From Pseudomonadota bacterium (GTDB taxonomy: Bacteria; Pseudomonadota; Gammaproteobacteria; Burkholderiales; Burkholderiaceae_C): a DNA stretch of 64,000 bases. Location: positions 25,864-89,863 of the forward strand of contig JAJZEC010000007.1 of NCBI GenBank assembly GCA_021805825.1. The letters are read 5' to 3'. The stretch's first letter is position 1. Each line of letters starts with the position of its first letter. Under the pieces are notes generated by a model that was given only the letters and a program-made list of their open reading frames with translations, did no database searches and had not been told where the DNA came from. The position numbers and the translations under genes are program-made. This document shows, piece by piece, positions 36,343 to 57,667 of the stretch.

Positions 36343-37290
36343 TCACCGCACGGATTGTGCCTGCTCTCCCGGGCCGCGCGGATCGCGGCCTCCGCCCTGC
36401 CCTGCACGCCCGGCGGCCCACTCCCGCAGCGGCGCGCAGGCGGCGACGAAGGGCGGATTGCGCCAATCCCCCCCCGGGGGGTAGCGCAGCGGCCGGCCCT
36501 GCAGGTCGTGCACGCAGCCGCCGGCGCCTTCGAGCACGGCCTGCGCGGCCGCGGTGTCCCACAGGCAGGTGGGGCCCAGGCGGGGGTAGACATGCGCCAG
36601 CCCCTGGGCGACGCGGCAGAACTTCAGGGAACTTCCGGCCTGCAGCAGTTCGCAGCGGCCCAGGCCCCGGATGAAGTCGGCGGTCGCCGCGTCGAGGTGG
36701 CTGCGGCTGGCCACCACGCGGCAGGGCTCGGCGGGCGCCGGGGGCGGGGCGACGTGGATCGGCCGCTCGCCCTGGGCGTCGCGCTGCCAGGCGCCGAGGC
36801 CGGGGCCGCCCCAGAAGCTCTGCCCCAGCGCCGGGGCGTGCACCACGCCCCAGACCACCACCCCGCCGCGCACGAGGGCGATGTTGACGCTGAACTCGCC
36901 GTTGCCGGCGAGGAATTCGCGGGTTCCGTCGAGCGGGTCGACCAGCCAGAAGGGCTGCCCGGCTTGCAGCGCAAGCTCGGGGCCTTCCTCGGACACCACC
37001 GCCACGTCGGAAAGCAGCCGCGGCAGCTGCTGCACGATCAACTGATGGGCCTCGAGGTCGGCGCGGGTCAGCGGGCTGCCGTCGGCCTTGTCGGCCAGGC
37101 GGGCGCCGGGAGCCCGGGGCGCGCAGGCTTCGCGGTGGTGCTGCTCGTACAGGCGCAGGATGCGCTGCCCGGCCTGCTCGGCCAACTCCAGCAGCTGCCG
37201 CACCAGGGTGGAGTCGGGCGCAGCAGCGATTGCGGAGCCTTGCGCGGCCGGGGTGGGTGTCGGGCTTTGTTGACGCATATTGTGATTCAT
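36343..37290 (-). CDS. cysQ: 3'(2'),5'-bisphosphate nucleotidase
   Basis: [55 protein letters not shown]. Confidence 0.93.
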
Positions 37291-37417
37291 CGATTCATCG
37301 ATTGCAGTTTTGCATGTTTCTAGGCAAAATGACAAGAATCGTACGGAGTATTCGCATTTTGCGCCAACTCTCGATGCCTCTTCCCAGCTTCACCGCGGCC
37401 TGCCGGATCCTGCCCCG

Positions 37418-38914
37418 ATGAACGATTCTGCCTCCATCCCCCCTGCCCCCGCGCCGGCCACCCAGGACGCCGGCTGCCCGCACGCGCTGCTGCAGCCGGG
37501 CACCGCCTGGGATCTGGCCGCCGCCTGCGCGGTGGTCGAGCAGGCGGGGCTGGCCGACAGCCGGCGCACCGCGGAGCGCCGGCTGCACGCCTGGGGGCTT
37601 CTGCCCGAGGAACTGGGCCTGGAAGCGCTGCGCGACGAACAGGGCCGCAGCCCGCGGCTGCTGGTGGCGCGCCGCGTGTTGGAGGAAGTGCGGGCGCGCC
37701 GCCACCTGGCCTTGTTCGTGCAACTGCATGGGCTGCCGGGCGGACGGCTGTTGCTGCACGCCAACGACGGGCGCGGCGCGCGCTCGTGGGTGGCGCTGGG
37801 CCAGGCCGTGCCCGATCGCGCGGAGCTGTGCGCGGCGCTGGCGCGGCTGCAGCAACTGGCGGGCAAGCCGGTGGGGCTGTTCGCCCATGGCGAACTCGTC
37901 GGCAGGCTGCGCGGCCTGGCGCTGCCCGGGCAGCTGGAGTTCGTGGAGGAAGCCTACGCTCCGGTGCTGCCGGCGCTGGTCTGGACCGCGCCGGGGCAGC
38001 GCGCGACGCGCGCGCCGCGCAGCGCGCACCTGCAGCGGCTGGAGGACGAGAGCATCCACATCCTGCGCGAGGCGGTGGCCGAGGCCGAGAACCCGGTGAT
38101 GCTGTACTCGTTGGGCAAGGACAGCTCGGTGATGCTTCACCTGGCGCGCAAGGCCTTCCATCCCGGACTGCCGCCCTTTGCGCTGCTGCATGTCGATACA
38201 CGCTGGAAGTTCCGGGAGATGTACCTGTTCCGCGACTGGGTGGCGCGGGTCAGCGGCATGCGCCTGCTGGTGCATGTGAACCCGCAGGCCGTGGAGCGCG
38301 ACATCAACCCCTTCGACCACGGCTCGGCGCTGCACACCGACATCACCAAGACGCAGGGGCTGAAGCAGGCACTGGACGCCCACGGATTCGACGTGGTGTT
38401 CGGCGGCGCGCGACGCGACGAGGAAAAGAGCCGCGCCAAGGAGCGCATCTTTTCCTTCCGCGACGCCCACCACGGCTGGGATCCGAAGAACCAGCGGCCG
38501 GAACTGTGGAATCTCTACAACGCGCGCAGGAACCGGGGCGAGAGCATCCGGGTGTTTCCGCTGTCGAACTGGACCGAGCTCGATGTCTGGCAGTACGTGG
38601 AGCAGGAGCAGTTGGCGGTGGTTCCGCTGTACTTCGCGAAGCGGAGGCCGGTGGTACGGCACGGCGATTCGCTGCTGATGGTCGACGACGATCGCTTCCG
38701 CCTGCTCGACGGTGAGCACATCGAACTGCGCATGGTGCGCTTTCGCAGCCTGGGCTGCTACCCGCTGAGCGCGGGGGTGGAGTCGCAGGCCGCTTCGGTG
38801 CCGGAGATCATCGAGGAACTGCTGCACAGCCGGCATTCGGAACGCCAGGGGCGGGCCATCGACGCCGACGGCGCCGCCAGCATGGAGCGCAAGAAGAAAG
38901 AGGGGTATTTCTGA
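37418..38914 (+). CDS. cysD: Sulfate adenylyltransferase subunit 2 with about 200-aa N-terminal extension
   Basis: [66 protein letters not shown]. Confidence 0.92.
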
Positions 38915-48615: not shown

Positions 48616-48996
48616 TCAGGGCAGGCTCAGGTACAGCACCCTTGTCTGCGGTTGATCGGAGGCACGCGTGGCGGGGCGGATCTCGCGGATGGTGAAGGTG
48701 GTGGTCTTGCCGTTGATCACCAGGTAGAAGCGATCTTCGCAGCGGAACAGATCATCCTGCACCACGACGACCAGGCCGCGCTCGGAGCGGAACACCTGGG
48801 CATCGATCTCGTGCCGGCCCTCGCGGTCGTACACCGCCTGGAAGGACAGGGGCCTGGCCGCGCCGCGGTTCTCGACGCCCATCGCGCCCGCCGCCCCGAG
48901 CAAGGCTCCGAGCACCTTGCGATCGACGCTGACCTGCACCACTTCCTCGCTCTCGATCCAGGCCGCCTTGCGCCCGGGGAATGCCTGCATGTCCAT
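48616..48996 (-). CDS. Hypothetical protein, paralog B
   Basis: 126 aa; conserved block shared with 42866-43252 (52/58 nt identical at 48721-48778 vs 42971-43028). Confidence 0.75.
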   Translation of the reverse strand: MDMQAFPGRKAAWIESEEVVQVSVDRKVLGALLGAAGAMGVENRGAARPLSFQAVYDREGRHEIDAQVFRSERGLVVVVQDDLFRCEDRFYLVINGKTTTFTIREIRPATRASDQPQTRVLYLSLP

Positions 48997-49133
48997 GGCC
49001 TTTCTCCCGCTTCGCCGGCGCGCTCCCGCATCGACCGGTCTCCTGGCTCGAAGCATCGGCGCTGCGCGGGGCGCGGCCAATCCCCAGACGGGGAGTCGCG
49101 TGACGCCGGCGCGGCGACGGGCACCGCGGTGGC

Positions 49134-52100
49134 TCAGGCGGCCGCCACCGCAGGCCGCGCATACGCCTGGCTGACCCGCTTCGCCAGCCAGTGCATCAGC
49201 GCCTGCGAGGCCGCGTCGCGCACATACCCGTCGTGCCCGCCATGAACCTGGGCGTGCCAGTGCAGCACCTCGGGGTCGTCGACGCCCTGCTTGCGCAGGA
49301 ACGCGGTGAGCGCGCAGTGCTCGACCGGCCCCGGCGCCGCGGCCCGCTGCGGGTCACGGGTGACAGCCCAATGCAGCGCCAGTGCGCCGGGCCAGGTGCG
49401 CAGCGCGGCGGCCGTGGGCCCGGCGGTGCCACGAGCGCGCATCCAGCCGAGGAAGTCGGCCGCCGGCATCGGTCGCGCGATGCCGTAGCCCTGGCCGAAC
49501 TCGGCGCCCAGCAGCCGCGCGACCTCGATGAACCCTTCCTCCTCCAGGCCCTCGACCACCGCGCGTTCGGCGAATTCCCTGCCGATGCGCTCCAGCGAGG
49601 CCAGCAGCCGCAGGGTGCGCATGGGGTCGCGCGGCAGGTTGGCGAGCAGGGACTGATCGATCTTGACCGTATCGAAGGGCAGTGAGGCCAGGCGCGTCAA
49701 GCTGCCGTAGCCCGCGCCGAGATCGTCCAGCGCCAGGCGCACTCCCAGAGCGTCGAGCGCATGGATGGTCTGGTCGCAGCGCGAGACGTCGATCTGCTGG
49801 GTTTCCAGGATCTCCAGCGTCAGATGCTCGGGAGCGACCCGCGCCTGGCGCAGCGCCTGCTCGACCCAGGAAGCGCAATCGGGGTGCGCCAGGCTGACCG
49901 GCGGCAGGTTGATGGAGATTTCGACGTCCAGGCCCGCGTCGCGCCAGCCGTGCAGGCTTTCGAGCGCCTGCTCGAGCCCCTGCCGGAACAGCGCGTGGAG
50001 TTCCTGCGTGCCGAAGGCGGGCAGGAAGCGTCCCGGAGGAATCCAGGCTCCGTCGGCACCCTGCAGCCTGGCCAGGGCCTCGGCCTTCACCACCGCGCCG
50101 GTCTGCAGGTGGGCGATGGGCTGCACCCACATGCTCAAGCCACCGCCATACAGGAGTTGCCGGTACGCCCGCACCTCGGCCGGGGGCAGCGGCCGCTGGC
50201 CGCCGGAGGTGGCCGCGAACTGCGCCTGGATGCGCCCGTGCAGCAGATCCAGCCACGACCGCGCCCAGTGCGATGCGAACTGGTTCGGATAGGCCCCGCA
50301 CAGGATGAGCACGCTGTCGGCGTGTTCGCCATCGGCGATGGGCAGCGCCGCGGCGCTGCGCCAGCCCGAGGCCTGGGCCAGTGCGCGCCAGGGCTGCAGC
50401 CGGGGATCGAGCAGGAAGGAATCGACCACCTGCAATTCCCGCGTGAACCAGGCCATCGACAACGGCCCGCGCTCGCGCCCCAGGATCGGGTTCAGGTTGG
50501 GCAGGCTGTGGGCCTGCTCCAGCCGCTCGGCCACGCGATCGAACCCGGCCCCGGCTCCGCTTTCGATGTGCAGCACGCCATGCTCGTCGGGGCGGAACAC
50601 CGCGACATGGCGCACCCCCGGCAGCGCGGCCAGGGCCTCGAGCATCGCCGGCAGCACGTCGACCCAGCGCGCATCGGCAGCCACCGGCTCGCTCAGCACC
50701 GCGGCGTAGGTGTCGGCGACCTCGTCCATCGCCGCGAGCTGGGTCTGGATCTCCAGGCGCAGCCGGGCCGTCGCGATGCGCAGCATGCGGTAGCGCACCC
50801 GCGGCGCGATGGGCGTGCTTTCCAGCTGCCTGCGCAGCAGATCCTCGTACAACCCGAAGCTGCGCTCCATGCTCGCCCCGGCCAGCCCGACCAGCGCGTG
50901 GATGCGGCCGATCTCGCGCGCCCGGCCCTCCAGCGCCTCGCGGGTGTTGCCGGGCTGGAACAGGCTCAGCAGGTGCGCGGCCTGCCGGATCTTCAGGCGA
51001 TCGAGCTCGGGCGCGCTCAGGGTACGCAGCACCGGGGCCATGCTCTCGTCGTGCGCGAGCTCGTCGTAGAAGGCGCTGCTGAAGGCGGTCGCCACGGCCT
51101 CGAAGATGCGGGTATCGATGGACTGCAGCAGCAGCGAGGAAGCGGCGCCGAAGACGTCGAGTTGCTCCTCCGGAACCGCAAGTTCGGGCAGTTCGGACGA
51201 CTGCGCTCCGATGCGCCACCAGGAGCCGCGCTCGGCCTTGCGCGCCTTGCCGGCGTACATCGCGCCATCGGCCTGGCGCAGCAGTGCGTCGCCGTCGCCG
51301 GCATCGCGCGGGTACAGCGCCAGGCCCATGGTCATGCCTACATGCGCCAGGCGACCCTCGCCGAGGTCGAAGGGCTGCTCGACCGCGGCATGCAGGCGAT
51401 CCAGCGCGATGCGGATCTGGCTCAGTGCGTCGGCCTCGCCCAGCGCTTCCAGCACGACGACGAACTCGTCTCCACCGGCGCGCGCCAGGAAGTCGCTCTG
51501 CCGCAGGCGCGCGCGCAAGCGGGTGGCGAACTCGCCCAGCAGCACATCGCCCGCGGCATGCCCGAAGCTGTCATTGACCGGCTTGAAATCGTCGAGGTCG
51601 AGCAGGCCGACCGCCAGGGCCTCCTGTCGCCGCTGCGCACGCGCCAGCGCCCCCGGCAGGTATTCGTCGAGCGCCAGCCGGTTGGGAAGGCCGGTCAGCG
51701 GATCGGTGCGCGCCAGCCTGTGCTCCGATTCCTGCTGCACGCGCAGGCGGCGGGCGGCGGCGATGCGCTCCAGCGTGAGGCCTGCGTCGTGCGCCAACCC
51801 CAGCAGCAGGTGCCGCAACTCGGGCTCGAAGGCCACGTCGTCGCCACGATACAGCAGCAGCAAGGCCCATGCGCTGCCTTCGCGCCGGATCGGCAGCAGG
51901 CTGACGGCGCGCAAGCCGACGCCGGCCGCGGCGGTCGCCCAGGGCGCGTCTTCGGTGTCGTGCAGGCCGAGGTTGAACAATGCTCGGCCCTCCAGCCACG
52001 CGCGGCCGGCGCCGGTGGGCTGCTGCGAGGATGCGACGCGCAGCGGCAGCGCAGCCGGATCGAGCGGCGCAAGCCTTCCGGCTGCCGCCGCCACCATCAA

Positions 52101-53156
52101 CAGGCCGTCGTCGCGCGGGCGCAGCACCATGGCCAGCGGCAGGCCGCCGGCGCCGGCTGCCCGCGCGCACAGGTCGCGCAGGTACGCGATCTCGTCGTCG
52201 GCCTCGGCGGCGGCCTGGTTGGCCTGGGCGACGAACTCCTGCAACTGTCCGCCGCGGGCCAGCAGCACCGCGGCGCGATGCAGCCGGAGGTTGCCGCCCT
52301 GCAGGCTGCGCAGCACAAGGGCCAGGTACGCCGCGGCGCCGGCCAGCGCCAGCAGCAGCATGCCCAGTTGCCAGCCGGGCCGGGCCACGGCATCCCAGGT
52401 GCGGGAGGCCAGGTACGCGGCCGGTGCGCGGGCGCGCACCACGAAGGGATAGCCGGGAACGGGAACCGACAGTTCCAGCGCATCGCCCCGGCCCAGTGAC
52501 CGCGGCAGCGCACCGAGCGCAACCGGGCTCCCCCAGGCCCGGCCATCGCGCTCATCGACCACGCGCAGGCGCCATGGCAAGGCGGCCGAGGCCTGGGTGG
52601 CCAGCAACTCGGCCACGGGGTAGGACGAAGCGACGAAGCACCGCGCCTGCGCCTGAGCGTCGGCCACGCGCAGGCGCATCGGCAGCGCCTCGACCGCGCC
52701 GACCCCGTCCCCGGCGGCCGCCGGCGCAGCTGCGCCCACCTTTCCCAGCAGCACGCCCGGATCGCCCGTCAGCGGCGCGAAGGCCGCCGGGCTCGGAGTC
52801 AGGCGGGTCAGCCGAAGGCCGGGAAGCCATCGCGCCCATCCGGATCCGGTGCCCGCGCCTTCCCGCGGCGCGGCGGTGGAGGAGCCGGCGCGCAGCAGCG
52901 CGCTGCCGGCGATGCGCAGCTGGCGCAGCCGGAGGTCGAGCCGATCGGCGATGCGGTCGGCCAGCGCCTCGGCCCGGGAATGCCCCTCCAGCAACACGGC
53001 ACGGCGCGCCGAGGCAGCCTGCTGCAGCAGCACGCCGGCGACCAGCAGCGCCGCCAGCAAGCAGGACGCGAGCAGCGCCAGCTGGGCGAAGCGGACATGC
53101 TGCGCGTCGGGCCCGGAGGACTCCGGGCGCGGGGCGTCGGCTGGCGGCAGGCTCAT
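49134..53156 (-). CDS. Membrane-anchored GAF-GGDEF-globin-GAF-EAL protein with CZB-like C-terminus
   Basis: Two TM segments around a periplasmic region; TDPLTGLPNR, LLDLDDFK, RQSD I-site, GGDEF; globin SAFYDEL...IGRIHALVGL; AEALARL, DDLGAGYGSL, VVEGLE. Start at ATG 53156, overlapping the upstream stop. Confidence 0.88.
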   Translation of the reverse strand: MSLPPADAPRPESSGPDAQHVRFAQLALLASCLLAALLVAGVLLQQAASARRAVLLEGHSRAEALADRIADRLDLRLRQLRIAGSALLRAGSSTAAPREGAGTGSGWARWLPGLRLTRLTPSPAAFAPLTGDPGVLLGKVGAAAPAAAGDGVGAVEALPMRLRVADAQAQARCFVASSYPVAELLATQASAALPWRLRVVDERDGRAWGSPVALGALPRSLGRGDALELSVPVPGYPFVVRARAPAAYLASRTWDAVARPGWQLGMLLLALAGAAAYLALVLRSLQGGNLRLHRAAVLLARGGQLQEFVAQANQAAAEADDEIAYLRDLCARAAGAGGLPLAMVLRPRDDGLLMVAAAAGRLAPLDPAALPLRVASSQQPTGAGRAWLEGRALFNLGLHDTEDAPWATAAAGVGLRAVSLLPIRREGSAWALLLLYRGDDVAFEPELRHLLLGLAHDAGLTLERIAAARRLRVQQESEHRLARTDPLTGLPNRLALDEYLPGALARAQRRQEALAVGLLDLDDFKPVNDSFGHAAGDVLLGEFATRLRARLRQSDFLARAGGDEFVVVLEALGEADALSQIRIALDRLHAAVEQPFDLGEGRLAHVGMTMGLALYPRDAGDGDALLRQADGAMYAGKARKAERGSWWRIGAQSSELPELAVPEEQLDVFGAASSLLLQSIDTRIFEAVATAFSSAFYDELAHDESMAPVLRTLSAPELDRLKIRQAAHLLSLFQPGNTREALEGRAREIGRIHALVGLAGASMERSFGLYEDLLRRQLESTPIAPRVRYRMLRIATARLRLEIQTQLAAMDEVADTYAAVLSEPVAADARWVDVLPAMLEALAALPGVRHVAVFRPDEHGVLHIESGAGAGFDRVAERLEQAHSLPNLNPILGRERGPLSMAWFTRELQVVDSFLLDPRLQPWRALAQASGWRSAAALPIADGEHADSVLILCGAYPNQFASHWARSWLDLLHGRIQAQFAATSGGQRPLPPAEVRAYRQLLYGGGLSMWVQPIAHLQTGAVVKAEALARLQGADGAWIPPGRFLPAFGTQELHALFRQGLEQALESLHGWRDAGLDVEISINLPPVSLAHPDCASWVEQALRQARVAPEHLTLEILETQQIDVSRCDQTIHALDALGVRLALDDLGAGYGSLTRLASLPFDTVKIDQSLLANLPRDPMRTLRLLASLERIGREFAERAVVEGLEEEGFIEVARLLGAEFGQGYGIARPMPAADFLGWMRARGTAGPTAAALRTWPGALALHWAVTRDPQRAAAPGPVEHCALTAFLRKQGVDDPEVLHWHAQVHGGHDGYVRDAASQALMHWLAKRVSQAYARPAVAAA

Positions 53157-54709
53157 GCCGCCTGGGCCTCGACACGGTCGCGCCCGCCTTCCTTCGCGCG
53201 GTACATCGCGGCATCGGCGCGGCTGAGGGCGTTGTCGATCGCCATGCGCCCCTGCCCGACCAGGCTGACGCCGATGCTCAGCGTGACCGGCAGGCGCTGG
53301 CCATGGATGCGCATGGCGTGCCGGCCCACGGCCTCGCGGATGCGTTCGGCAACGACACAGGCGTCGTCCAGGTCGGTATGGGGCATCAGCACGGCGAATT
53401 CCTCGCCGCCGATGCGCGCCAGCACGTCGTGGGCGCGCAGCGCCGCGCGCACGCGTCCGGCGAGCATCTGCAGCACCAGGTCGCCGACGCCATGGCCGCG
53501 ACTGTCGTTGATGGACTTGAAGCGGTCGACATCCATCAGCAGCAGCGACAGGGGGCGTGCGGCCGCGCGATCGAGCATGGCCTCGGCGTCGAGGAAGAAT
53601 CCCCGGCGGTTGCGCAGTCCGGTCAGCGGATCGGTCTCCGACAGCCGGTGCAGCTCCTGTTCGTAACGCTTGCGCGCGGTGATTTCCACCAGGCTGGAGA
53701 TCACCGCCGGCTGGCCGTCGTAGCGCAGGCAGCGGGCGGCGAGCATGACGTCGATGGGCGCGCCGTCGACGGTGCGCAGGCGCACGTCGGCCGACCGGAC
53801 CAGGCCGCGGCTGCGCAGCGCGCCGAGCATCGCGCGCTGCTCCTGCCGACGCACGAAGAACCAGCTGGCGTTGGCCTGCCGATACGCCAGCTGGCTGCGC
53901 CCCGGGTTGAACAGCAGCCGCGCGGCGCGGTTGGCCAGCAGCACGTCTCCACCGCGGGCCTTGTTGACGACCAGCGGCACCGGACACACCTCGAGCAGGC
54001 GCCGCAGGCTGCGTTCGGCGCCCCGCCGCTCGCGCACCTCGCGTCGCACCCGGCGGCGCGCCAGCCAGGCCTGGCGCCGGGCGCGACCATCGCGCACCGC
54101 GAGCTGCCAGCCGGCCAGATTGGCCAGCAGAACGAGCAATGCGACCATCGCCATCGAGCGTGGCGACAACTGGTAGGCGAGATCCACTTCGGCCAGATAG
54201 GCGGCGCCCAGCATCGGCAGCAACCACAGGTTGGCCCGGGTCAGCGGTGGCAGGTAGGCGTAGAAGGCCAGCGTGACCGCGAGCAGGGGAACCACGCGGT
54301 AGGCCGCCGCACCGTGGTAGTTCAGCGTGATGACGGACAGGCCCAGCACCACCGCCAGTTCGAACGCGATCAAGGCACGGCGCAACGTGTCCAGGCCGCT
54401 GCGCGCCGTGGGGCGGGCGAGGTAGGCCAGCAGCAGGCCGAGGCCGAAGATGCCCAGCCGGATGCCGAACAGTTCGCCCAGGAGCACGCGGTCGCGCAGC
54501 ACCGCGGCATCGAGCAGCGCGGCGAGCAGGAACACGGCGCCGCCGAGCAGGCCGAACAGCCGCAACCGGGAGCGGGTGACCGCCAGCACCGCCTGCTGGT
54601 AGGCGCGCTCCATGCGGGCATCGACGAACATGCCGTGACGATTCAGCGCATGGGCGCTGCCCCGGCGCGTTGCCGCCGCCGCGGCGTGCAAGGTTCTTCG
54701 ATGGGGCAT
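53153..54709 (-). CDS. Membrane PAS-GGDEF diguanylate cyclase
   Basis: About six TM helices, PAS-like region, TDPLTGLRNR, MDVDRFKSIND..GH..GD, RAHD I-site, GGEEF. ATG 54709 with AGGA (alternative 54745). Confidence 0.9.
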   Translation of the reverse strand: MPHRRTLHAAAAATRRGSAHALNRHGMFVDARMERAYQQAVLAVTRSRLRLFGLLGGAVFLLAALLDAAVLRDRVLLGELFGIRLGIFGLGLLLAYLARPTARSGLDTLRRALIAFELAVVLGLSVITLNYHGAAAYRVVPLLAVTLAFYAYLPPLTRANLWLLPMLGAAYLAEVDLAYQLSPRSMAMVALLVLLANLAGWQLAVRDGRARRQAWLARRRVRREVRERRGAERSLRRLLEVCPVPLVVNKARGGDVLLANRAARLLFNPGRSQLAYRQANASWFFVRRQEQRAMLGALRSRGLVRSADVRLRTVDGAPIDVMLAARCLRYDGQPAVISSLVEITARKRYEQELHRLSETDPLTGLRNRRGFFLDAEAMLDRAAARPLSLLLMDVDRFKSINDSRGHGVGDLVLQMLAGRVRAALRAHDVLARIGGEEFAVLMPHTDLDDACVVAERIREAVGRHAMRIHGQRLPVTLSIGVSLVGQGRMAIDNALSRADAAMYRAKEGGRDRVEAQAA

Positions 54710-54783
54710 GGGCCGTCCTGTGGCGCCGAATGTAGTGCGCGCCATCGGCAACGACCATCCCCAGGCGGGGACGTCGCGGCTGC

Positions 54784-55569
54784 TCAGTTGCCTGGATCGA
54801 GCATTTCGGCGAAGAAGCGGCTTGGCTCGTCCCCGGCCTGCAGCAGCAGCGCGCGCGCGTTCCTGCGGTGCATCGCCCGGATCTCCCGGATCCTGCGCTG
54901 GATATCGGTTTCCGAATCGGCGTAGGCGCGGGCCACGTCCCGGAACTCCGTCTGCAAACCCTCGAAGGCCTCGACGACCGCGGGATCGAAGTGACTCCCG
55001 CTGCCGGCGAACAGGATGGCCGCGGCCTGCGCATGATCCATCGCCGGCCTGTGCAGCCGGCGGCTGATGAGCGCGTCGTAGACGTCGGCAACGGCCATCA
55101 GCCGTGCGGCCACCGGGATGGCATCGCCGGCCAGCCCGTGCGGGTAGCCGCTGCCGTCCCATCGCTCATGGTGGCCTTCGACGATCTGGCGGGCCACCCG
55201 CAGAAACAGCAGGTCGACGCCGGGTTCGCGGGCGGCGCGCTCGAGGGCCTCGCCTCCCAGCGTGGTGTGGCGCTTCATGACCTCGAACTCGGCAGGCTCG
55301 TAGCTTGCCGGCTTGAGCAGGATGTGGTCGGGAATCGCGACCTGGCCGATATCGTGCAACGGCGCGCACTGGAACAACAAGTCGATCATGCCCTCGAGCC
55401 GCAGGGTCGGGCCGAAGCGCGGATGCTCGCGCAGACGCTCGGCGAGCAGCCGCAGGTAGTGCTGGCCGCGGCGGAGGTGGTTGTCCGTTTCCAGGTCGCG
55501 TGCCGCGGCCAGCGAGGCCAGCGCATGCATGCTCAGGCGCGATCGCGCAGCGGCGGACGGGTCGATCAA
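54784..55569 (-). CDS. Stand-alone HD-GYP domain protein
   Basis: [29 protein letters not shown]; no REC domain; TTG start with AGGGG. Confidence 0.85.
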
Positions 55570-55593
55570 GCCGGGCCCCTGTGGTGCGGCGTT

Positions 55594-56574
55594 TCAGACG
55601 CAGACGGCCGGCGGGCTGCGCTCGCCGGCCGTACGGTGGACGAACTCGGGCGCGCTCAGCCCGAGCGCCTCGAGCAGTTCATGGGCTTCGCGCGTCGCGC
55701 TGCGCAGCACGCTCACGCGGTGCGTGAGATCCCAGCGGTAGCGCAGGCGCGTGTTCTGCTCGAGCCAGGCCGCGCTGCACATGGCGTCGTCGAACCAGCC
55801 GAGGCCCTCGCGCGCCACCAGGGTGGCCAGGCCGTCGACATCGGCCAGCAGCGCGAGCAGCGACTCGACCTTGCCTTCGCCGGCGACCGCCGGGACGCCG
55901 CGGTGGTGGTCGCGTGCGACCACCGCGAAGGCCTCGGGCAGATGCCATTGGTGGAGCGCCAGGTAGCCGAGATCGGCATGGGTGTAGCCGAACCAGCCGA
56001 CTTCGATGCGCGCCAGCTCTTCGGGCCCATCCCACCGCGCCTGCTCGACCATCTGGAACTGCTGCGGGTTGTGCGCCAGCATCAGGAAGCGCCCGATGTC
56101 GTGCAGCAGGCCGGCGGTGTAGGCCTCGCCGGGATCGATGCGGGTGTTGGAGACCATCGGAGCCATGCGGCGCATGAAACATGCCGCGAGCACCGAGTGC
56201 ATCCACAATTCCCGGGCACCGCGGTCGAGCGCCGGAAACACGCGCTGGATGGAGTCGGCCAGCATCAGCCCGGCGGCCGCGCGCGCTCCCACGCGCAGCA
56301 GCGCGGCCGCGGTGGACAGCACCGGGCGCCCCGCGCGGTACTGCGCCGAATTGGCCATGTGCAGCACGCGCAGCGCGAAGCCTGGGTCGGCGTCGACCAG
56401 TTCATGCACCCGCTCGAAATAGTCGATGCGATCGGCGTCCAGCGCCGCCACCTGCACGGCCAGGGACGACGGCACCGGCAGTTTCTCGAGCACTTGTTCG
56501 ATGCGGTCGCGGATGGTGGTGGGCACAGAGACCACACAGGACAGCCGCGGGGCTGGACGAAGTGGGGGGTTCAT
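55594..56574 (-). CDS. HDOD domain protein
   Basis: KLPVPSS, DADPGFALRVLHMANSA, LWMHSV, AYTAGLLHDIGR, GYTHADLG.LAL.QWHLP. Confidence 0.88.
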   Translation of the reverse strand: MNPPLRPAPRLSCVVSVPTTIRDRIEQVLEKLPVPSSLAVQVAALDADRIDYFERVHELVDADPGFALRVLHMANSAQYRAGRPVLSTAAALLRVGARAAAGLMLADSIQRVFPALDRGARELWMHSVLAACFMRRMAPMVSNTRIDPGEAYTAGLLHDIGRFLMLAHNPQQFQMVEQARWDGPEELARIEVGWFGYTHADLGYLALHQWHLPEAFAVVARDHHRGVPAVAGEGKVESLLALLADVDGLATLVAREGLGWFDDAMCSAAWLEQNTRLRYRWDLTHRVSVLRSATREAHELLEALGLSAPEFVHRTAGERSPPAVCV

Positions 56575-56671
56575 GGCGGTCGGGGGGCGAGGCTGGCGTG
56601 GAAGCCAGTCTGCCGGCGGCGCAGGGGCCGCACCATCCCCATCCGGGGACGGCGGCAGGCCGCGCGAACCT

Positions 56672-57667
56672 TCAGGCGCCGCGGCGCGCGCGCAGGCGCG
56701 GCAGGCCCATCACCAGTCGCACCAGATCGACCTGCCCGCGGGTGCGGGTCTTGGCGAAGATCACCTTCAGGTAGGTGCGGGCCGTGGCCAGCGTGATGCC
56801 GCAGGCGCCGGCAGCCTCCTCCAGCGAGGCCGTCGAGGCCAGCGCGTGCACCAGGCGCCCCTCGGAAGGGGTCAGCGCGAACAGCTTGGACAGATGCGCC
56901 GGCTCCAGCACCTCCGGGCTCTGCGCATCCTGCACATGGATCATCACCCCGTCGCCCCAGACGGTCAGGGCCAGCAGCAGCTGGCCGCGTCCGTCGCTGC
57001 GCGGCAGCGCGAGCACGTCGTCCTGCCCGTTGGAGGCCACGGCCTCGATGGCCCGGCGCAGCGCCGCGGCATGCGCGGGATCGCGCGCAGCCACCCTGCC
57101 CCCGGCCATGCGCTGCAGCGCGGCGCCCTCGGCCAGCACCGAGGCGGCGCGGCGGTTGGCGTACAGCAGCGTCGACGCCGCGTCCACCAGCAGCAGCGCC
57201 AGGGGGATTTCCTCGAAGGCGGCGCGGATCGGGCCCTGCGAGAGATCCGGCCGCAGCGCCGCGGCAATGGCCTCGACGAGTTGTTCCGGAGTGCAGGGCT
57301 TGCGCAGGTAGCGGGCGATGCCCACGCGGTTGACGGCATCGACCACGGTGGCGAAATCCTCCGCGCCCGACAGCAGGATGCTGGGCAGGCCGGGGTTGTC
57401 CTGGCGCATGGCCTCGATCATGCTGACGCCGTCCATGCCCGGCATGCGCACGTCGGCGACCACCAGGTCGAAGGACTCCTGACGGCAGGCCTCGAGCGCT
57501 TCGCGCGGGTCGCTGACAAAGCGCATGCTCCACTGCGCGGCCTTGCCGCGCAGGCCGGCGCGCAGCACCTCCAGCAGGAAGGCGTCGTCGTCGACGAACA
57601 GGATGCGCCCGGTGCGGCCGTCGGATTCCGGGCCCCGGGTGCCGGCTGCAGCCTCTTGGATGCTCAT
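56672..57667 (-). CDS. Response regulator: REC + PAS-like + LuxR-type HTH
   Basis: ILFVDDD, VADVRMPGMDG, RYLRKP; C-terminal FALTPSEGRL...AAGACGITLATARTYLKVIFAKT. Start 57667 (alternative 57748). Confidence 0.85.
   Translation of the reverse strand: MSIQEAAAGTRGPESDGRTGRILFVDDDAFLLEVLRAGLRGKAAQWSMRFVSDPREALEACRQESFDLVVADVRMPGMDGVSMIEAMRQDNPGLPSILLSGAEDFATVVDAVNRVGIARYLRKPCTPEQLVEAIAAALRPDLSQGPIRAAFEEIPLALLLVDAASTLLYANRRAASVLAEGAALQRMAGGRVAARDPAHAAALRRAIEAVASNGQDDVLALPRSDGRGQLLLALTVWGDGVMIHVQDAQSPEVLEPAHLSKLFALTPSEGRLVHALASTASLEEAAGACGITLATARTYLKVIFAKTRTRGQVDLVRLVMGLPRLRARRGA

Follow-up and report, generated by a model that had tools for sequence, protein, structure and literature searches.

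A 64,000-nucleotide stretch of contig JAJZEC010000007.1 from a Burkholderiales member of the Pseudomonadota (assembly GCA_021805825.1; the whole stretch analysed is called the window here) raises the question of how an enzyme carrying both a GGDEF and an EAL domain might be governed by a globin placed between the two and by a Cys/His tail placed behind them. The gene in question (P0001; 49134..53156, minus strand, stop codon included) was defined from the list of open reading frames (ORFs) and its translation. It encodes 1340 residues, a product that is also on record in the protein collection. Its domains follow one another in the order transmembrane (TM) helix, periplasmic region, TM helix, GAF, GGDEF, globin, GAF, EAL and Cys/His tail. 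This order recurs with the same residues in about 90 homologues, and the arrangement is therefore more than chance. Our preferred explanation is a bifunctional cyclic di-GMP (c-di-GMP) enzyme in which sensors are paired with outputs in series, a haem globin acting through the second GAF domain on EAL and a tail binding a metal. We put the probability of this explanation as a whole at roughly 0.6; function is deduced here from anatomy only, that is, from sequence and structural models. A first-pass annotation made from the letters alone had described the same series of elements, and all of its element coordinates proved correct when recomputed from the translation.

The globin occupies approximately residues 665-821 (50694..51164, minus strand), as delineated by the Pfam Protoglobin model, a family profile, an AlphaFold2 (AF2) model and Foldseek. 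Protoglobin (PF11563) matches residues 686-799, scoring 32.0 bits when the whole protein is scanned and 37.1 bits for the segment by itself, above the cut-off of 25 bits. A single-sequence search of the globin against PDB sequences gave nothing meaningful, and the sensor globins were found by the family profile only. This profile, built from 18 globins, retrieved Tlr1989 (8H17, 5e-5), the Geobacter globin-coupled sensor (GCS; 2W31, 7e-5) and HemAT (1OR4, 1.6e-3), with weak matches to the haem-binding Vibrio RsbR and AfGcHK as well. In the alignments to 1OR4, 2W31 and 8H17, His753 in the IGRIH motif (nucleotides 50900-50898, minus strand) lies on the proximal F8 His, and Tyr697 (51068-51066, minus strand) on the B10 Tyr. 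The profile alignment pairs GriHaLvGv with asIHlrIGl and aFYeel with aFYknl. The AF2 model has a predicted local distance difference test (pLDDT) score of 87.4, and its best Foldseek neighbours are DosC, HemAT, AfGcHK (TM-score 0.78), BpeGReg, Tlr1989 and GsGCS, each with a probability of 1.00. The PDB entries among these matches include 4ZVA, 1OR4, 5OHE (TM-score 0.78), 6M9A and 2W31, with the DosC globin 4ZVA as the top structural match. Because His753 and Tyr697 are in register and both the profile and the fold match sensor globins, the domain is judged haem-competent, and haem binding is predicted. The residues that the annotation had pointed to in FY and in IGRIH align with the B10 and F8 positions of HemAT.

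Across the family, 82 of 90 globins retain the F8 His, and B10 is Tyr in 56/90 and Trp in 13/90; a Trp at this position could confer a different ligand preference. Eight members (P0036, P0052, P0070, P0075, P0078, P0080, P0082 and P0088) have L, Y, Q, I or R in place of the proximal His. These keep the rest of the block and are probably haem-free variants.

The position of the globin is unusual, since the globin sensors characterised so far are N-terminal in their proteins, the placement that a 2022 census of c-di-GMP sensing gives for haem globins (PMC8846402); the annotation had noted that globin sensors usually lie N-terminal to GGDEF. Here the domain starts at about residue 665, behind the TM helices, GAF and GGDEF, but it precedes GAF-EAL. 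In the AF2 model the segment between GGDEF and globin scores below pLDDT 50, and the last globin helix runs on continuously (model residues 143-179). The annotation's phrase "inserted between GGDEF and EAL" is right as to position and misleading as to insertion, for free-standing globin-GAF-EAL-tail proteins of about 677 residues exist.

Both catalytic domains appear intact. GGDEF spans residues 483-642 (51231..51710, minus strand; Pfam E 1.3e-38) and has its motif at residues 561-565 (nucleotides 51476-51462, minus strand). Five residues upstream stands the RxxD I-site, RQSD, at residues 552-555 (51503-51492, minus strand). The domain thus carries GG(D/E)EF together with the I-site, the motif combination of an active cyclase, and cyclase activity is predicted; G561, G562, D563 and E564 do not vary across the aligned family. 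These findings bear out the annotation's intact GGDEF with an I-site. EAL covers residues 997-1229 (49470..50168, minus strand; Pfam E 2.8e-46), with the EAL motif itself at residues 1026-1028 (nucleotides 50081-50073, minus strand), where it had been placed before. The catalytic and metal-binding set of EAL domains comprises EALxR, N, ExLE, DD, KxD, E and Q. The full set is present as E1026, R1030 (of EALxR), N1083, E1115, E1118, D1144, D1145, K1165, E1202 and Q1222, all invariant or nearly so across the family alignment. With both motif sets intact, the enzyme probably both makes and destroys c-di-GMP. Between globin and EAL lies the second GAF domain, at approximately residues 830-984 (50205..50669, minus strand), supported by the family hidden Markov model (HMM) and by a Pfam GAF match to residues 849-975 or so (28.4 bits on the isolated piece). 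The family HMM detects this domain in all members.

A search with residues 645-1000 as query yielded 27 clusters at 90% identity, and an exhaustive search with the tail only yielded 75 representatives at 50% identity. Family domain HMMs found GGDEF-globin-GAF-EAL-tail in nearly all full-length matches, and behind N-termini as different as MASE1, PAS, hemerythrin, CHASE and TM-periplasmic-TM. By its sequence the block is thus a conserved unit with swapped N-terminal sensors. Within it all linkers are tight in length, so that linker-length variance, considered as a guide to the partner enzyme of the globin, does not discriminate. Of the 401 genomes of the order, 14 carry the block; of its 168 genera, 6 do. 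Taxon names come from a few named database entries only: Thiomonas sp., Thiomonas sp. FB-6 and FB-Cd, a betaproteobacterial metagenome-assembled genome (MAG) and a Leptospirillia MAG. The last of these, P0173, lies outside the Proteobacteria. Its source organism is one of acid mine drainage, and the entry could reflect lateral transfer or a binning error.

The family also includes standalone globin-GAF-EAL-tail proteins of 677-688 residues that have an N-terminal globin. They make up at least 19 clusters, one of which includes a protein encoded on a 170-kb contig of Thiomonas sp. FB-6. In a 96-row tree of the globin-GAF-EAL core, these short proteins lie dispersed among the fused proteins (5 changes for 6 rows). 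The idea that a globin-phosphodiesterase cassette was recently fused to a cyclase was considered and set aside on this ground. Because of this scatter, to speak of a cassette fused to a cyclase is a statement of modularity and not of a dated event. The literature search turned up no published description of globin-GAF-EAL or of an internally placed globin, and the sequence comparisons place the family as a conserved, uncharacterised variant of globin-coupled c-di-GMP enzymes.

The C-terminal tail (approximately residues 1245-1335; 49152..49424, minus strand) contains the motif C-A-L-T-A-F-L and four candidate metal ligands, H1262, C1281, H1301 and H1305 (first nucleotides 49373, 49316, 49256 and 49244, minus strand). 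The consensus of 93 family tails reads GALAyHW ... CPLtxFL ... WHxxxH ... L..WL..RV. The Cys is kept in 86 of 93, the two His of the HxxxH pair in 85/93 and 79/93, and the first His in 67/93. All four HCHH ligands occur together in 57/93 tails and, by our own tally of the patterns, the C/H/H triad in 77/93. The conserved Cys/His tail seen in the single sequence is therefore a feature of the family. The AF2 model of the tail (pLDDT 82.8) is all-helical: one helix bears His35, Cys54 stands at the beginning of the following one, and a third carries His74 and His78, separated by one turn.

The comparison with CZB domains is suggested by a paralogue in the same genome. This protein, P0098 (1621 residues; contig C16:41389-46329, minus strand; L005:390-5252), is 38% identical to the target over 959 residues, up to a shared ARPMPAxxxxxW linker. 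After this linker, in the same position as the target tail, it carries a CZB that satisfies the published motif CX(L/F)GXW(Y/L), in which the Gly is near-universal (PMC8262984). The score of this CZB, 27 bits by the genome scan and 21 bits by hmmscan, stays below the Pfam cut-off of 29.4. Other EAL proteins of the class also have a CZB after the same linker, and EAL-CZB is a recognised architecture that accounts for 3.4% of known CZB proteins (PMC8262984). An hhalign comparison of the 93-tail profile with 33 canonical CZBs, run alongside three tail controls, gave a weak match at P=0.0013 (controls 0.09-0.6). In the resulting register, Cys falls on Cys and both His on both His across a gap of 7-8 residues. 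The tail is tied to CZB because of the paralogue's CZB at the same position, the EAL-CZB proteins with the same linker and this register. From the sequence comparisons, the tail is probably a CZB-like metal site in shortened form. On the core tree, the proteins with a CZB tail group in a single narrow clade (15 clusters) on a long branch; either these proteins acquired a full CZB by a swap, or a CZB was shortened in the other members.

Taken together, the product would be an inner-membrane, probably dimeric, bifunctional c-di-GMP enzyme with the core GAF-GGDEF-globin-GAF-EAL-Cys/His tail, in which two sensor-to-output units would stand in series within one protein. The periplasmic region and the first GAF domain would control the GGDEF cyclase, with product feedback through the I-site. 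The ligand state of the globin haem (O2, possibly NO or CO, or the redox state of the haem) would act through the second GAF domain on the EAL phosphodiesterase, the signal being carried by the long last globin helix and that GAF domain. Hydrolysis would be favoured when O2 is bound to the haem, on the analogy of DcpG, DosP and GCS-HD-GYP. EAL is the presumed primary target of the globin because the standalone forms keep the order of sensor before output. The tail would be a small helical bundle in which the His of helix 1, the N-cap Cys and the HxxxH of helix 3 bind a metal, most likely Zn. It may serve as an allosteric metal or thiol-oxidation input on the adjacent EAL, functionally like the CZB of the paralogue. 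The chances that the tail binds metal as proposed here are about even.

The findings that weigh against this interpretation are best taken together with the alternatives that they favour, beginning with the tail. The annotation had read it as matching the 3His-1Cys pattern of CZB. The ligand set does stand in the CZB order (His, Cys, HxxxH), but neither the spacing nor the CxLGxW motif agrees. Successive ligands are 19, 20 and 4 residues apart, compared with about 29, 28 and 4 in the paralogue's CZB and the 33 canonical CZBs, so that the tail is some 18 residues shorter between its ligands. The motif Gly is Thr in the target and something other than Gly in most members, and Trp has become Phe (C-P-L-t-x-F-L in the family). 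PF13682 has no match on the isolated tail at E values up to 10, and at the same threshold a genome scan with this model reported four other sites, the target tail not among them. The isolated tail matched no family in Pfam or NCBIfam; a single row, DUF6645 at E 0.16, came out of the scans of the tail and the periplasmic region and was treated as noise. The single-sequence tail search against PDB sequences gave nothing meaningful, the search of PDB sequences with the tail profile found no CZB, and Foldseek returned no structural neighbour in the PDB for the tail model. Because of these last two results, the tail is not called a CZB by fold. Nor is the tail a member of PF13682 as currently defined. 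A true CZB that senses Zn or HOCl, like those of DgcZ and TlpD, would account for the ligand order, for the likeness of C-x-L-x-x-F-L to the published motif, for the CZBs after the same linker in the paralogue and several EAL proteins, and for the in-register hhalign match. The spacing, the motif Gly lost here and mostly in the family (PMC8262984), and the missing Pfam, PDB sequence and DgcZ (3T9O) fold matches nevertheless make it unlikely. For the link to CZB itself, the hhalign probability is only 18-19%. For the metal site, the first tail His has been lost about 10 times independently, and a tree-aware test of joint ligand loss is underpowered, with too few independent events to reach significance (3-4 independent pairs, p 0.25-0.5). 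Raw co-loss counts of the tail ligands are inflated by relatedness and were not used as support.

The same caution extends to the globin, which directly follows GGDEF through a fairly constant linker of 15-19 residues. Because the two adjoin in this way, the globin could conceivably control the cyclase, or both enzymes. The globin might mainly steer the preceding GGDEF, as a reversed DosC, or both enzymes reciprocally, as in DcpG, leaving EAL under the second GAF domain and the tail. Besides the linker, the invariant WW pair at the end of GGDEF fits such a coupling, as does DcpG itself, where one globin can steer both activities in opposite directions (PMC10882959). Set against these points are the standalone proteins, in which the globin travels with GAF-EAL-tail and without GGDEF. 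The linker to GGDEF is also modelled as disordered, and in all characterised GCSs the globin is N-terminal to the output that it regulates. We regard this arrangement as somewhat less likely than a true CZB tail. That the fused form looks ancestral on the core tree is a further point against our preferred explanation. A still more sceptical view makes the globin a haem-free structural or dimerisation module, like the non-haem globins of the Bacillus RsbR type, and the tail a helical cap devoid of a sensory site. It could appeal to the absence of the proximal His in 8/90 and of Tyr B10 in 34/90 members, to the replacement of the first tail His in 26/93 and to the tail's want of a fold neighbour. 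Yet His F8 is kept in 82/90 and is present in the target along with Tyr B10, and the proteins that match its globin best, in sequence and in structure, are without exception haem-binding sensor globins. The C/H/H triad persists in 77/93 tails, and ligand losses tend to coincide, though not to a statistically significant degree. This view thus appears improbable. Finally, domain shuffling is common among GGDEF-EAL proteins, and no new principle is demonstrated by the architecture.

Of the known systems, DcpG of Paenibacillus dendritiformis is the closest functional analogue, followed by DosC/DosP and GCS-HD-GYP. DcpG has globin, GGDEF and EAL in one polypeptide, and the gas ligand decides between synthesis and hydrolysis, a switch of the kind that the annotation had proposed for the target; as PMC10882959 describes it, O2 favours phosphodiesterase activity and NO diguanylate cyclase activity. 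According to that description its globin is N-terminal to both enzymes, whereas that of the target lies between them and is followed by a GAF domain. The target also has a membrane anchor, a periplasmic region and the Cys/His tail; this comparison with DcpG is one of described domain architecture. In E. coli, the haem-controlled cyclase DosC (DgcO/YddV) works with the phosphodiesterase DosP (PdeO), and a short globin-GAF-EAL gene behind a separate GGDEF gene on contig C77 of the present genome resembles such an operon pair. The E. coli system has the globin on the cyclase and a haem-PAS on the phosphodiesterase, whereas the target places the globin with EAL and fuses the enzymes. GCS-HD-GYP of Vibrio fluvialis is likewise a globin-coupled sensor with c-di-GMP hydrolysis as its O2-activated output, but this output is HD-GYP and not EAL, and the protein is soluble, with no GAF, GGDEF or tail (PMC10882959). 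The 2024 paper in question presents it as a newly identified globin-coupled phosphodiesterase and cites the dual-activity DcpG. The CZBs of E. coli DgcZ, H. pylori TlpD and the EAL-CZB class resemble the tail in ligand set and order and in their helical fold, and those of the EAL-CZB class in their C-terminal position after EAL as well (PMC8262984). They differ from it in the points already given: length, motif Gly and Trp, and the failure of PF13682 and fold searches to connect the two. P0098 shares TM-periplasmic-TM, GAF, GAF, GGDEF, globin, GAF, EAL and the ARPMPA..W linker, but ends in the CZB H-x2-F ... C-L-L-G-R-W ... H-A-E-F-H. In its globin, YW stands in place of the target's FY, so that B10 is Trp and not Tyr.

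GCSs have so far been studied almost only with an N-terminal globin and mostly with a cyclase output. If the preferred explanation is true, a globin-controlled EAL occurs in two natural formats, free-standing and behind an active cyclase, which would allow a direct test of how two opposing activities are governed by one haem site. With the tail, the concept of CZB domains as 3His/1Cys sensors of Zn or HOCl would be extended to a shorter domain missed by current models, and surveys of CZB-regulated signalling would undercount such tails. If haem or metal binding fails, what remains is a domain shuffle of the ordinary kind among GGDEF-EAL proteins, if an unusual one. We go one step further only tentatively, and with a little less than even confidence: globin-GAF-EAL-tail may be an undescribed class of globin-coupled c-di-GMP phosphodiesterase with an unrecognised miniature metal/thiol-redox tail domain, CZB-derived or convergent. 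Its nine copies here would then form a battery of O2/redox/metal integrators with differing N-terminal sensors. Nine paralogues with swapped inputs in one small genome make a comparative set.

These copies emerged from a census in which the six-frame ORFs of the 3.35-Mb assembly were scanned with the family HMMs. Seven full-length GGDEF-globin-GAF-EAL proteins were found, the target included; six of them, the target among these, have the HCHH tail and one, P0098, has the canonical-type CZB. The remaining full-length paralogues lie at C10:11775-16949, C33:6502-10275 and C45:4249-8112 on the plus strand and at C4:18823-24105 and C83:12273-16136 on the minus strand. Four full-length paralogues share the target's 27-row clade, which argues for a lineage-specific expansion with swapped N-terminal sensors. 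The census further recovered two short globin-GAF-EAL proteins, one classical globin-GGDEF protein and one GGDEF-EAL-CZB protein. The short protein on C10 (40067-42244) has 674 residues from its Met, a globin 15-20 residues from the N terminus and an HCHH tail. The other, on C77 (34577-36661, minus strand), is encoded about 77 nucleotides behind a membrane-GGEEF gene on the same strand (36723-37871), and the pair is, by its domain content, a split version of the fused architecture; the tail of this short protein has neither the Cys nor the His ligands. The GGDEF-EAL-CZB protein (C70:14576-17371, minus strand; L004) has a degenerate CZB of 18.8 bits, below the Pfam cut-off, which lacks the first His and has Tyr for the last (HAEFY).

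The N-terminal part of the target protein was delimited by hydropathy and Pfam. Two hydrophobic segments (residues 21-50 or so and 263-285; Kyte-Doolittle mean above 1.9 in a 19-residue window, with peaks at 21-32 and 263-267) flank about 215 residues. They are predicted to form TM helix 1 at approximately residues 23-45 (53022..53090, minus strand) and TM helix 2 at approximately 263-285 (52302..52370, minus strand), the topology following from hydropathy. The presumed periplasmic sensor region between them (approximately residues 46-262; 52371..53021, minus strand) matched no Pfam or NCBIfam family. Homologous TM-periplasmic-TM N-termini occur in P0020, P0021, P0049, P0093, P0095 and P0058. 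The first GAF domain follows at residues 326-462 (51771..52181, minus strand; Pfam GAF/GAF_2, E 1e-11).

Examination of the neighbourhood places the target as the last gene of a co-oriented run of c-di-GMP/HD-domain signalling genes (window 53153-57667, minus strand). From its upstream end, this run comprises a response regulator-PAS gene (about 56672-57667), an HDOD gene (55594-56574), an HD-GYP gene (54784-55569) and a membrane-PAS-GGDEF gene with a GGEEF motif (53153..54745, start approximate; Pfam GGDEF E 2.8e-43), all on the minus strand. The TGA stop of the last overlaps the ATG of the target as ATGA, and the two genes are predicted to be translationally coupled through it. A 1985-codon ORF was rejected as an artefact of the 72% G+C content; its 5' part overlaps the membrane-PAS-GGDEF gene in another frame. 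Directly downstream of the target is a small ORF of 154 residues (48616-49080, minus strand) without a Pfam match. There is no histidine kinase on the strand of the run; a hybrid kinase gene and an HD-GYP response regulator gene lie nearby on the strand opposite to the target.

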